A program made the position numbers and the translations under genes. This document shows, piece after piece, positions 7,828 through 8,578 of a DNA stretch of 64,000 bases; position 1 is the stretch's first letter, and each line of letters begins with the position of its first letter. The notes under the pieces are model-generated. The model saw only the letters and a program-made list of their open reading frames with translations, made no database searches and was not told the DNA's origin. This stretch comes from a virus, in IMG/VR virus record IMGVR_UViG_3300045988_132927, positions 13,484 to 77,483 of that record. One strand, written 5' to 3'.

Positions 7828-7860
7828 AACAATTATTTTATTTCTCATATTAATAAAGCG

Positions 7861-7932
7861 AAGCCGGATTTGAGACTTGTTATGCGGATACCGAAGGTTG
7901 AAGAACGATATCAAGATAATCCGGCTTTTTTG
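7861..7932 (+). terminator. long-stem hairpin (aagccggatt / aatccggctt, 10 bp, 47-nt loop) followed by T6; terminator-like or small structured RNA
   Basis: perfect 10-bp inverted repeat read from sequence. Confidence 0.4.
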
Positions 7933-8004
7933 TGCGATTTCGTGAAGGATGGAACTATCATCGCCTTGGTTTAACAGAACAGACCTACGTACCTCCACTG
8001 TCCT

Positions 8005-8024
8005 GACGGGCATGGACGCCCGTC
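8005..8024. other. GC-rich 7-bp hairpin gacgggc-atggac-gcccgtc inside GC-rich noncoding island
   Basis: perfect inverted repeat; local GC ~60% versus ~37% genome. Confidence 0.4.
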
Positions 8025-8088
8025 TCGCCTACCAGCCTGCCTAATTCTCCACTGGCTACCTAATATAACTATTAACGTCACTCCATCA

Positions 8089-8111
8089 CCTATCTCCCTT
8101 CAGTCGATAGG
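8089..8111. repeat. hairpin repeat copy 1: stem cctatc/gatagg, loop TCCCTTCAGTC
   Basis: stem differs from copies 2 and 3 but is self-complementary; loop conserved. Confidence 0.5.
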
Positions 8112-8145
8112 TTCAGTCGTTTTTAAATATTATAAGTTCTTTCGC

Positions 8146-8166
8146 ATCGTTCCCTTCGGTCACGAT
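8146..8166. repeat. hairpin repeat copy 2: stem atcgt/acgat, loop TCCCTTCGGTC
   Basis: covarying stem, conserved loop. Confidence 0.5.
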
Positions 8167-8236
8167 ACTCAATCTTTTAACACAATTAGGCGAACAATAC
8201 AATGACGGAAAAAGTAATTTGTCAATCCGTTCACTC

Positions 8237-8261
8237 ACTTAACTCCCTTCGGTCGTTAAGT
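8237..8261. repeat. hairpin repeat copy 3: stem acttaac/gttaagt, loop TCCCTTCGGTC
   Basis: covarying stem, conserved loop. Confidence 0.5.
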
Positions 8262-8484
8262 TTATTCACTGTAAACAATTATATGAATAAATGGTAAAGT
8301 ATATAAAATAATATAAATAATATAATGAGTAAGATCATTGAAAATGGTCTTAATATTAAGGAAAACGGAGACTATTCATAGGCGTAGTTTTAATTCAAGA
8401 TTTGTTGTCCCACTCCTGACGGTCAGACGGTTACGTTCAGAGTCGTTTTCCCGTCTCTTGTTCAAACCGTCATAAAATAAAAAA

Positions 8485-8519
8485 CCTTGTATCCTATTTC
8501 TCTCAAACCGGATACAAGG
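8485..8519 (+). other. 10-bp hairpin ccttgtatcc / ggatacaagg with 15-nt loop, upstream of late operon; possible attenuator or terminator
   Basis: perfect inverted repeat. Confidence 0.4.
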
Positions 8520-8550
8520 CAGTGCATTTTCTTCTTTTTATATAAAATCA

Positions 8551-8558
8551 TATATTTG
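8551..8558 (+). promoter_or_regulatory. -7 element TATATTTG of promoter for late/structural operon
   Basis: consensus TAnnTTTG 20 nt upstream of ATG 8579. Confidence 0.4.
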
Positions 8559-8578
8559 CACTAAACAACAAAAACAAT

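Follow-up and report, generated by a model that had tools for sequence, protein, structure and literature searches.

Three look-alike hairpins in a noncoding gap of a crAss-like phage genome are real and under selection, and they fold best on the strand opposite to the surrounding genes (the minus strand). The gap is one conserved noncoding module of about 650 bp that always lies upstream of an orphan gene encoding a 339-residue protein. The module is conserved, its stems covary, its pairing is biased to one strand, and it behaves as a cassette. We favour, with rather less than even confidence, a reading of the aligned sequences in which the hairpins are repeated modules of this region that function as the minus strand, most likely as RNA. 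A minus-strand RNA of this kind would be a new structured phage RNA, bearing three hairpins with identical caps flanked by GA and a built-in antisense regulator. The module now has a testable strand, fold and boundaries, and is tied to an orphan protein family.

The window, a stretch of 64,000 nucleotides, comes from the 151-kb genome of phage csAssE-Sib, an epsilon crAss-like phage. Phages of this group are common in human gut metagenome assemblies and, to our knowledge, none has been cultured. The gap (7828–8578) lies between a tail lysozyme gene (5407–7827) and the ORF for the 339-residue protein, inside a structural block whose genes are all on the + strand. As the original prediction had it, the gap holds no credible ORF: no small ORF on either strand is kept between lineages, and a 53-residue minus-strand ORF called in one relative (L122) is interrupted in lineages W and P, by stops after 5 and 11 codons. 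Its GC content had been described as much higher than that of the rest of the genome, but it is 36.8% against 38.2% for the window; the sole GC-rich part is 7950–8100 (about 50–55%), and the segment 8262–8345 falls to 15.5%. Nor does the gap stand ahead of the late operon, as had been proposed. It sits within the structural block of the + strand, and the three genes that we checked there each have a host-type promoter of their own.

The same proposal listed a packaging element among the candidates and named a terminally redundant end as an outcome that would refute it. Beyond the mere existence of a long noncoding gap nothing speaks for a genome terminus, pac or cos site, and this explanation is almost certainly wrong: the gap is internal (77.7–78.4 kb of the 151-kb record), more than 150 independent contigs run through it unbroken, the terminase genes map to 20–23 kb, and a second copy can occur at another site. 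We also rejected a Y RNA partner of the phage Ro60 (TROVE) protein, because the gap gives no match and the YrlA-like match (E = 0.0024) sits elsewhere, at 2761–2865, adjoining the Ro60 gene. A template repeat of a diversity-generating retroelement (DGR) was rejected as well, the gap sequence having no repeat elsewhere in the window. Covariance models of Rfam release 15 gave nothing with E below 4 across 7000–9500, and at gathering score they gave two tRNAs only in the whole window. The portion of the genome's published description available to us annotates a DGR at record positions 45751–47816, and in that portion the gap, the orphan gene and the Ro60 gene all go unmentioned (PMC11054128).

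Table 1. Features of the gap and the adjoining gene (window coordinates)
Feature	Coordinates	Strand	Description
Long hairpin and TTTTTT	7861–7932	+	Intrinsic terminator of the lysozyme gene; outside the mobile cassette
C-rich (+) / G-rich (minus) block	7935–8085	minus	Conserved; the one truly GC-rich part; π = 0.033
GC hairpin	8005–8024		GACGGGC-ATGGAC-GCCCGTC; W lineage only, not in P, Q, R
Long-range 7-bp helix	8025–8031 with 8187–8193	minus	From RNAalifold; encloses boxes 1 and 2
Box hairpin 1	8089–8111 (8088–8112 with 7-bp outer stem)	minus	CCTATC/GATAGG; box 8095–8105
Box hairpin 2	8146–8166 (8144–8168 extended)	minus	ATCGT/ACGAT; box 8151–8161
Box hairpin 3	8237–8261	minus	CTTAAC/GTTAAG; box 8244–8254
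AT-rich tract	8262–8345		15.5% GC; + strand purine-rich; strongly conserved (π = 0.017)
Conserved 3' block	8393–8473		TTCAAGAT..TTG..CCAC, palindrome CTGAC-G-GTCAG (8416–8426), GTTAC
Hairpin and U-run (8484–8474)	8474–8519 (stem 8485–8519)	minus	Predicted canonical intrinsic terminator
Bacteroidetes-type promoter of the 339-residue protein gene	8527–8558	+	-33 TTTT/TTTC; -7 TATATTTG (8551–8558)
Orphan basic protein gene, 339 aa	8579–9598	+	Always accompanies the noncoding module
Putative antisense promoter	8586–8617	minus	-7 TATTTTTG (8593 to 8586); -33 CTTG (8617 to 8614)

The three hairpins and their shared 11-nucleotide loop, TCCCTTC(A/G)GTC, are present as first described. We call the shared sequence the box; it reads TCCCTTCAGTC in hairpin 1 and TCCCTTCGGTC in hairpins 2 and 3, and a scan of the whole 151-kb genome found it confined to the gap. 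Hairpins with a 5-bp stem and an 11-nucleotide loop are common by chance: the window has 1.6 per kb, and three or more of them turn up in 9% of gap shuffles. Two such hairpins with an identical loop were seen in none of 2,000 gap shuffles, and no other loop is common to two of them in the 64-kb window. The three boxes share one orientation and are irregularly spaced (56 and 93 nucleotides). They are not intrinsic terminators: no U-run follows any of the hairpins on either strand, and scoring for terminator-like sites across 7000–9500 returned none. The recurrence of CCTGACGG (8003 and 8413) proved to be a 12-nucleotide, 92% two-copy repeat peculiar to this lineage, and chance alone would give several repeated 8-mers in 750 nucleotides. 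Of what was originally observed, then, the hairpins and the ORF-free gap held up, and the high GC content and the CCTGACGG repeat did not.

Within a genome the box is uniform; from one lineage to another it changes, reading CTCCTCACGTCG in lineage R. Hairpin 2 alone forms in all three of the W, P and Q lineages, with a minus-strand stem of 7 bp that includes one G·U. The outer stems of boxes 1 and 3 belong to the W lineage only. They are missing in P, Q and R, where both boxes carry the same non-complementary flanks, CCTCAC...GATTCGG, and so look like direct repeats of about 25 bp. Where flanking stems do form (W1, W2, W3, P2 and Q2, by lineage and box), they differ in sequence yet stay complementary.

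The box had been taken for an unpaired + strand loop with a C-UUCG-G-like core. Relatives contradict this: among paralogous boxes the closing C4-G9 pair is replaced by C·C (TCGCTTCGCTC) or C·U (TCACTACGTTC); the tetraloop is broken to UUCA (G8 to A) in 121 box copies, including box 1, and to UUUG (C7 to U) in 16; and the box falls outside the UNCG family on the + strand. Read on the minus strand, the box is GA-CC-GAA-GG-GA, that is, a C(GNA)G mini-hairpin with flanking tandem G·A. Positions 3 and 9 covary as CG, GC and AT (AU as RNA), and positions 4 and 8 as CG and TA, together with a C·A on the + strand that is U·G on the minus strand. Box 1 has this last form (GA-CU-GAA-GG-GA), and its 4-8 pair is U-A in 14 relatives. 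Even within one genome, boxes differ in a compensatory manner at positions 3 and 9 (CC..GG, GC..GC and AC..GT). G5 and A7 are near-invariant over the box copies and the central triloop base is A, U or G. The minus-strand cores are CCGAAGG, GCGAAGC, CCGUAGG and CCGGAGG.

Fitted to the minus strand, the box-hairpin model leaves 81.6% of cells paired. Its covariation score is 0.528, compared with 0.247 in shuffles (none of 500 as high) and at most 0.143 in slid controls. The argument that stems which covary around a retained box indicate a selected structure is upheld by the alignments of relatives.

Pairing is also strand-asymmetric. Wobble (G·U) cells number 14 on the minus strand and 2 on the + strand, though they represent only some 7–10 independent events. 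Each box unit folds 3–7 kcal/mol better on the minus strand, and hairpin 3 has three separate stem polymorphisms, each giving G·U if read on the minus strand and A·C if read on the + strand. The long-range helix behaves in the same way. Its 8026–8192 pair is C-G in 39 of 78 close relatives and C·A in 37, reading G-C or G·U on the minus strand; position 8192 is thus a balanced G/A polymorphism at which minus-strand pairing is retained either way. In lineage P, this helix is held only through three minus-strand G·U pairs. The G·U pairs of the box hairpins, the 8025/8193 helix and the 8485–8519 hairpin together favour the minus strand. Single-stranded DNA tolerates G·T pairs too. Folding energies of the whole gap have similar z-scores on both strands and do not separate them.

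This asymmetry bears on the idea that the hairpins work in + strand RNA, as a leader, operator or antitermination site displaying the UCCCUUCGGUC loop with its C-UUCG-G core. The neighbouring genes are all on the + strand, so RNA would cross the gap whenever the 7861–7932 terminator leaks, and box variants with UUCG, UACG and UCCG suit the UNCG family. However, the breaks in C4-G9 and in the tetraloop remove that core, on the + strand a number of the fixed or common states are mismatched as C·A, and in lineage P the 8485–8519 stem barely folds there (-5.8 versus -17.2 kcal/mol on the minus strand). Moreover, the promoter of the orphan gene lies downstream of all box and hairpin elements. We regard a + strand RNA as very improbable. 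What survives of the original interpretation is a selected, structured noncoding element; the + strand unpaired loop, the GC-rich island and the late-operon setting do not. Among its candidate functions, a protein-binding RNA operator and a structured noncoding RNA remain viable on the other strand, and an element of the replication type is a possibility.

Could the boxes be duplex-DNA repeats (iterons, operators or arm-type sites) for the cassette protein, their hairpin potential being incidental? Three direct copies and one inverted copy, uniform in each genome and lineage-specific (CTCCTCACGTCG in R), fit co-evolution with a binding protein, and the flanks that boxes 1 and 3 share in P, Q and R are those of direct repeats. 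Yet the compensatory changes at positions 3 and 9 preserve pairing rather than sequence, the flanking stems of W1, W2, W3, P2 and Q2 are different but complementary, and strand-asymmetric wobbles would be meaningless for duplex DNA. We consider this reading quite improbable.

Selection on the gap is evident from its low diversity: among 78 relatives π is 0.017–0.034, against 0.06–0.09 at third codon positions, a 2–4-fold reduction. The module and the orphan gene behave as a cassette that occupies two genome sites, sometimes both in one genome. Natural deletion variants (L063 and L178) have lost all three boxes and the AT-rich tract. The 339-residue protein family is found only in these phages. 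A search of 185,579 species genomes found neither a homologue of the protein nor an exact match to the GC-rich core. Neither by sequence nor by fold does the protein resemble Rep, primase or HUH families, it shows no similarity to winged-helix proteins, and its predicted structure has no good match among solved structures. An integrase with its attP site was rejected on the same genome searches and on the lack of a recombinase fold. A metagenome scan for distant loci returned the same clade only. The P0017 and P0018 loci (the P0018 contig stops 94 nucleotides upstream of the gene) are absent from IMG/VR, and a scan of viral contigs with the 14-base pattern GATAACTTGNNCCACC hit mostly contigs outside the clade, presumably chance matches.

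The hairpin at 8485–8519, also part of the original prediction, is confirmed and is invariant in 78 relatives (diversity 0.000). Across lineages W, P, Q and R its stems covary, with the G·U pairs of lineage P formed on the minus strand only, and it folds 3–11 kcal/mol better on that strand. Its apex is GUUU-GNRA-AAAU, with loops GAGA, GCGA and GUGA. In all four of these lineages the minus strand has a U-run that begins 0–2 nucleotides past the stem; the + strand T-run of W is 7 nucleotides off. The element thus qualifies as an intrinsic terminator on the minus strand, where we predict that transcription stops.

A putative promoter for such a transcript lies within codons 2–13 of the orphan ORF. 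Its -7 box (at least 5 of 6 positions matching) occurs at ORF nucleotides 3–15 in five of five lineages, with variable 'nn' positions, against a background of 0.004–0.011 per nucleotide. Promoter and terminator together predict an RNA of about 100 nucleotides (from about 8579 to about 8475), which would be antisense to the orphan gene's promoter and very short 5' UTR. The orphan gene's own promoter is kept in all lineages, S included, with a TAnnTTTG box 26–28 nucleotides ahead of the ATG; it is the only canonical conserved promoter in the gap, and none was found there for an independent RNA. In the minus-strand sense the terminator lies upstream of the boxes, so that only read-through or a second promoter would bring transcription to the boxes. 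To their left, lineages P and R have no conserved minus-strand terminator.

Three links lead us to prefer RNA over DNA: the minus-strand U-run after 8485–8519 in all lineages together with the GNRA caps; the minus-strand TAnnTTTG box at ORF nucleotides 3–15 in all five lineages; and the + strand terminator at 7861–7932, which bears the same C(GNA)G cap, suggesting that the phage uses this cap in RNA hairpins. If the folded molecule is RNA, with the ends and the partner that we infer, each box would form tandem G·A/A·G pairs, two base pairs and a GNA triloop, stacked on a variable stem, and the 8025–8031/8187–8193 helix would wrap boxes 1 and 2. Minus-strand transcription would start at the antisense promoter and stop at 8485–8519, the box hairpins being reached by read-through or from a second start in the AT-rich tract. 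The antisense RNA may limit expression of the orphan gene, and three identical GA-flanked caps could each dock one and the same protein, the simplest candidate being that of the cassette itself. Against RNA stand the missing outer stems 1 and 3 in P, Q and R, the small number of wobbles and the like z-scores of the two strands.

Phage P22 sar, lambda OOP and plasmid countertranscripts are cis-antisense small RNAs that end in a stem-loop terminator and control an adjacent gene. The RNA predicted here resembles them: its putative promoter faces backwards from within the 5' end of the target gene; a single long stem-loop whose apex is conserved, followed by a U-run, would make up most of it; and it is complementary to the target's promoter and 5' UTR. 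Unlike them, it is known from sequence alone, would overlap the mRNA by only about 12–14 nucleotides, and has about 550 nucleotides of conserved structure, including the three box hairpins, beyond its terminator. There is a precedent for the RNA reading: long intergenic regions of the crAss-like phage phi14:2 (g004–g006) yield long noncoding RNAs, function unknown, transcribed above most genes, and no common early-promoter motif was found in that phage (bioRxiv 10.1101/2020.03.07.982082). The gap is likewise a long intergenic region of a crAss-like phage; unlike it, the phi14:2 regions are early and co-directional with genes, and the likeness seen is one of description.

The strand bias would suit any single-stranded form, and a possible but somewhat unlikely alternative is that the boxes are single-stranded DNA initiation signals of a replicon-like cassette. 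The AT-rich tract would melt and the minus strand extrude C(GNA)G hairpins, to be recognised by a primase, polymerase or initiator, possibly the 339-residue protein, in the manner of RSF1010 ssiA/ssiB, the complementary-strand origin of phage G4 or the hairpin promoters of N4. The phage G4 origin has three hairpins in one intergenic region, as here. C(GNA)G and CCGAAGG are classic DNA mini-hairpins, which counts against RNA, and the minus-strand CCGAAGG is identical to that of RSF1010 ssiA (PMC13037366); N4 virion-polymerase promoters are GNA-capped hairpins (PMC4496689). As in these d(C-GNA-G) systems (ssiA, the G4 origin and the N4 promoters), the cap sits on variable stems of 5–7 bp and is strand-specific. 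An inverted core occurs on the + strand 125–200 nucleotides leftward (7891–7897; GCCTGAAGGGA in lineage P), the layout is origin-like (GC-rich block, three direct boxes, an 85-bp tract of 15.5% GC, adjacent gene and predicted antisense RNA), and the cassette is found at two sites, at times both in one genome.

By contrast, the boxes here have invariant tandem G·A and two base pairs between stem and triloop, and RNA would more typically show the long-range helix and the frequent G·U pairs. Boxes and AT-rich tract are lost together in the deletion variants, the tract is conserved in sequence as well as composition, and the phage has a replication module elsewhere in its genome. No primase or T7-like polymerase partner was identified, unlike in N4 and ssiA. 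A C(GNA)G-capped hairpin is present on the template strand, as at ssiA; priming by a cognate primase is predicted at most, and the neighbouring protein shows no primase similarity. The loop type also fits an N4-type virion-polymerase promoter, but the box occurs only in this late-block gap and not upstream of minus-strand replication or early-type genes, so it is no general promoter of that kind. If the hairpins do act as DNA, this phage group would gain its first candidate for an origin or initiation signal. Whether they prove to be RNA or DNA, they offer a place to begin studying phages that cannot yet be grown.

A bolder form of the DNA argument sees in the 1.8-kb unit of noncoding region, orphan gene and antisense RNA a selfish mini-replicon that is autonomous, or else a new type of mobile element, resident in crAss-like genomes. 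We hold this to be unlikely, although it would explain the two sites, the one or two copies and the decay by internal deletion. In such a unit the minus-strand C(GNA)G hairpins would be single-strand initiation or recognition sites, the 339-residue protein an initiator or primase, and the antisense RNA a control of copy number or dosage. Iteron origins that stand beside an initiator gene and an antisense control RNA include the pMV158 double-strand origin, which has three 11-bp repeats, and RSF1010 oriV. The gap similarly has three 11-nucleotide direct boxes, hairpins, GC-rich and AT-rich blocks, and a neighbouring gene with its own promoter and a predicted antisense RNA. The direct repeats lie by the AT-rich tract as in iteron origins, but their spacing is irregular, they covary internally as structure, and the neighbouring protein belongs to no known initiator family.

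Two other hairpins of the original prediction are likewise present. The GC hairpin (8005–8024) has variants that give mixed wobble evidence. The 7861–7932 hairpin, with its T-tract, is missing at the P and R sites; its stem covaries (AAGCCGGATT/AATCCGGCTT in W versus AAGCCGAGCC/GGCTCGGCTT in Q), and its population variants are G·U on the + strand, with one compensatory pair. Its apex, ACC-GAA-GGT (7889–7897), is a + strand C(GNA)G mini-hairpin and an inverted copy of the box core. A DnaA-box reading of TTATCCACT in lineage P is not significant on its own. On its minus strand the AT-rich tract holds the region's best sigma-70-like match (TTTATA 8307–8302, TATAAT 8283–8278), which points into hairpin 3 and is not clearly conserved. 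The core of the C-rich block, CTCGCCTACCAGCCTGCCTAATTCTCCACTGGCTAC (8024–8059), is recognisable in W, P, Q and R and in part in S, and in the conserved 3' block GTTAC is followed by a hairpin that is different in each lineage.

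The three predicted hairpins lie in a non-coding gap (7828-8578) within a long plus-strand block of structural genes. The window is 100% identical to csAssE-Sib, an epsilon crAss-like phage from the human gut (OR575929.1, 151,256 bp; record position minus 69,841 gives window position). In the consulted sections of its genome paper (PMC11054128), the gap, the 339-aa ORF and a nearby Ro60 gene go unmentioned, and a text search of those sections found neither 'Ro60' nor 'Ro sixty'.

All three hairpins are present, each with an 11-nt box. Chance readily produces hairpins with a 5-bp stem and 11-nt loop (1.6 per kb of window; at least three in 9% of gap shuffles). 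Two sharing one loop occurred in 0 of 2000 gap shuffles, and such hairpins share no second loop in the window. Nor does the box occur elsewhere in the complete genome, allowing one mismatch. Covariation and low diversity bear out the selected structure proposed in the original prediction, and that observation is real except for its GC claim. The GC-rich island shrinks to about 7950-8100 (50-55% GC); the gap overall has 36.8% GC versus 38.2% for the window, and 8262-8345 has 15.5%. The reported recurrence of CCTGACGG amounts to two lineage-specific copies without statistical weight.

Features in and around the gap (window coordinates; W, P, Q and R are lineages)
Feature	Position	Strand	Remarks
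Tail lysozyme gene	5407-7827	+	left neighbour of gap; Pfam Phage_lysozyme2
Lysozyme-gene intrinsic terminator	7861-7932	+	immediate U-run; stem covaries W vs Q; G·U on + strand
GC hairpin	8005-8024		W lineage only
Hairpin 1	8089-8111		CCTATC/GATAGG; box TCCCTTCAGTC
Hairpin 2	8146-8166		ATCGT/ACGAT; box TCCCTTCGGTC
Hairpin 3	8237-8261		CTTAAC/GTTAAG; box TCCCTTCGGTC
Predicted terminator hairpin	8485-8519	-	covarying stem, adjacent U-run
339-aa ORF, unannotated	8579-9598	+	right neighbour of gap
Antisense TAnnTTTG box, W	8593->8586	-	TATTTTTG
Antisense TAnnTTTG box, R		-	TACTTTTG
Antisense TAnnTTTG boxes, P		-	TATATTTA and TATATTCG
Antisense TAnnTTTG box, Q		-	TATCTTTA

The 339-aa protein is a member of a small orphan family restricted to these phages (21 cluster representatives in 1.84 billion), with no homologue in 185,579 species genomes. 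We compared five lineages. W, the window's type, has about 126 loci between the lysozyme gene and a structural gene (97-99% protein identity to the window protein). The same site is occupied in Q (5 loci in a more distant phage; 84% identity for P0002, L122 and 57% for P0009, L124) and R (1 locus, 44%). P (52 loci, about 61%) occupies a second site ~35 kb upstream, often on the same contigs as W, and S (1 locus, 22-23%) has a different neighbourhood. In all five, a non-coding region of 560-750 bp lies 5' of the gene, with its parts in a common order: a C-rich block (core CTCGCCTAC..CCTGCC..TGGCTAC), then the boxes, numbering two or three, an AT tract rich in purines, a conserved block (GATAACTTG..CCAC..CTGA-N-TCAG..GTTAC), a hairpin whose apex is conserved, and, 26-28 nt 5' of the ATG, a TAnnTTTG promoter of the Bacteroidetes type. 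The lysozyme terminator does not travel with them. Because csAssE-Sib has an empty P site (record 41636-41720, 84 bp), which in relatives is filled (~1.85 kb), region and gene constitute an insertion/deletion cassette. The paralogous second copy, present in many relatives (gene ~61% identity; L102:3361-5246, IMG/VR contig 3300045988_110894), is flanked by genes for a DUF6808 protein and a 292-aa structural protein; comparing L102 with csAssE-Sib revealed no target-site duplication.

The whole gap is under purifying selection. Nucleotide diversity, taken over 78 close relatives, is 0.033 in the C-rich block, 0.021 in the box region, 0.017 in the AT tract, 0.034 in the 3' block and 0.000 in hairpin 8485-8519, throughout below the 0.06-0.09 of third codon positions in flanking genes. 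Part of it is missing from some natural variants. Two W-type variants (loci L063 and L178) carry internal deletions of 190-290 bp (about 8046-8338 in one, about 8150-8335 in the other) and retain the C-rich block, 3' block, terminator and gene. Both deletions take out the boxes and the AT tract, so this part is open to loss, at any rate in assembled genomes.

The conserved structure differs from the one originally drawn. Box variants, labelled by lineage and box, are TCCCTTCGGTC (284 copies: W2, W3, P3, Q1), TCCCTTCAGTC (107, mainly W1), TCGCTTCGCTC (53, P1), TCCCTACGGTC (53, P2), TCCCTTTGGTC (16, a W2 variant), TCCTTTCAGTC (14, a W1 variant), TCCCTCCGGTC (5, Q2) and TCACTACGTTC (5, Q3). P1 and Q3 lose the C4-G9 closing pair, which contradicts the proposed C-UUCG-G core. 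The outer stems are not general either: in P and Q, inverted repeats flank the middle box only (ATATCG..CGATAT; ATATC..GATAT), boxes 1 and 3 having common non-complementary flanks (CCTCAC...GATTCGG), and R has no box with a clear outer stem, which makes six-base stems at boxes 1 and 3 a W-specific feature. Within the box, positions 3/9 are C-G, G-C or A-T, positions 4/8 are C-G, T-A or C·A, TC..TC (1-2 and 10-11) is almost invariant and the central base varies. As judged from these sequences, the variation fits a three-base loop on a 2-bp helix. Read on the minus strand, the box is GA-CC-GAA-GG-GA: tandem G·A/A·G, two C-G pairs and a GNA triloop. There C·A reads as a U·G wobble; C-G to U·G to U-A is the usual route of compensatory change. 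The R box (GAC-GUGA-GGA, minus strand) closes a G-N-N-A loop with C-G.

A number of independent observations speak for the minus strand rather than the plus strand of the original prediction. Each box unit folds 3-7 kcal/mol better on the minus strand. In a formal covariation count of 29 distinct box units, minus versus plus values were 81.6% versus 77.0% paired cells, 14 versus 2 G·U cells, and scores of 0.528 versus 0.452 (shuffled means 0.247 versus 0.163; observed score attained in 0 of 500 shuffles on either strand; top slid controls 0.143 versus 0.127). Three separate polymorphisms in the hairpin 3 stem form G·U wobbles on the minus strand where the plus strand has A·C; so do the hairpin 2 extension, pair 4-8 of box 1 and the box-adjacent pair of P2. 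RNAalifold finds a long-range 7-bp minus-strand helix (8025-8031/8187-8193) that is perfect in W, keeps 6 of 7 pairs in Q and survives in P only through three G·U pairs; position 8192 is G in 39 and A in 37 of 78 relatives, the A being a mismatch on the plus strand, and on the minus it gives C-G or U·G. Wobbles run the opposite way in one minor variant only, and we consider a plus-strand RNA operator improbable.

Hairpin 8485-8519 points the same way. Its stem differs by lineage (W/Q CCTTGTATCC, P CCTGYCCY, R AATGCCTCC), with one to three G·U pairs in P on the minus strand only (-17.2 kcal/mol versus -5.8 on the plus). The conserved 15-nt loop becomes GUUU-GNRA-AAAU (caps GAGA, GCGA, GUGA), and a U-run directly follows the minus-strand stem in every lineage; the plus-strand T-run of W lies seven bases off. 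By sequence, this combination is characteristic of an intrinsic terminator that would end minus-strand transcription.

Such a terminator (8519->8475) needs a promoter to its right. All five lineages have a minus-strand TAnnTTTG box (5 or 6 of 6 matches) at nt 3-15 of the ORF, within codons 2-5, and each box has, at the correct distance, a sequence that matches the -33 element at 3 of 4 positions; across these ORFs the background frequency of such boxes is 0.004-0.011 per base. TA..TTT is kept although the 'nn' positions and encoded residues vary. The putative antisense RNA would span ~100 nt (about 8579 to about 8475, within the 8474-8617 element) and would be complementary to both the promoter of the gene and its very short 5'UTR (12-14 nt). 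For the box hairpins, which lie beyond the terminator, transcription would depend on read-through or a second start, and this is the RNA model's weakest link. The region's best sigma-70-like match (TTTATA 8307-8302/TATAAT 8283-8278, in the AT tract) aims into hairpin 3 and shows no clear conservation in other lineages.

Could the boxes act as DNA? C(GNA)G sequences such as CCGAAGG form classic, extraordinarily stable DNA mini-hairpins; CCGAAGG caps RSF1010's priming signal ssiA, the N4 virion RNA polymerase has GNA-capped hairpins as its promoters, and C(GNA)G-type sequences also occur at the phage G4 origin (PMC13037366, PMC4496689). The minus-strand box core is identical to the ssiA cap. A single-stranded DNA initiation signal would also suit the layout, which resembles an origin beside an initiator gene (GC block, three boxes, AT tract, gene, antisense RNA), and the inverted plus-strand core copy on the left (7891-7897 in W, at the lysozyme-terminator apex; GCCTGAAGGGA in P). 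However, nothing detectable links the 339-aa protein to an initiator, primase, HUH or recombinase family, the boxes are deletable, the AT tract is conserved in sequence beyond mere composition, and the long-range helix and the frequent wobbles are typical of RNA. Moreover, the undoubted plus-strand RNA terminator at 7861-7932 bears a C(GNA)G cap too; this cap varies between GAA and GGA, and where W has A-T, Q has T-A. These points place a minus-strand structured RNA first, a tentative ranking somewhat short of an even chance. The single-stranded signal is possible but unlikely, and binding sites on duplex DNA are less likely still. The gap matches no Rfam family. We rejected a protein-coding gap, a DGR template and a genome end, the last now very improbable. 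We are dealing with a new non-coding module of restricted lineage, for which the model is clear and testable and the function inferred.

In P-type genomes the C-rich part (L089:3294-3480, L100:3391-3471) holds the inverted box copy on the plus strand, in some within tandem repeats of about 80-89 nt (2-3 copies). Each of three structural-block genes checked has a Bacteroidetes-type TAnnTTTG box ~10-27 nt 5' of its ATG (8551-8558; 9645-9652; L102 about 5220), an arrangement that suggests many promoters read by host polymerase rather than a single late operon. Just upstream of the window, the block also carries annotations for two divergent TnpB genes, which encode RNA-guided nucleases (record 58986-60125, 64190-65413). 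A Y RNA of the nearby Ro60 gene was rejected for the gap. A full-length, sub-threshold match to YrlA (Rfam, Y RNA-like; 28.5 bits, E = 0.0024) lies at 2761-2865 (plus), directly upstream of tRNA-Tyr (2916-2988), tRNA-Lys (3061-3134) and the TROVE/Ro60 gene (3250-4884); match and gene are probably the phage's own Y RNA/Ro60 pair.
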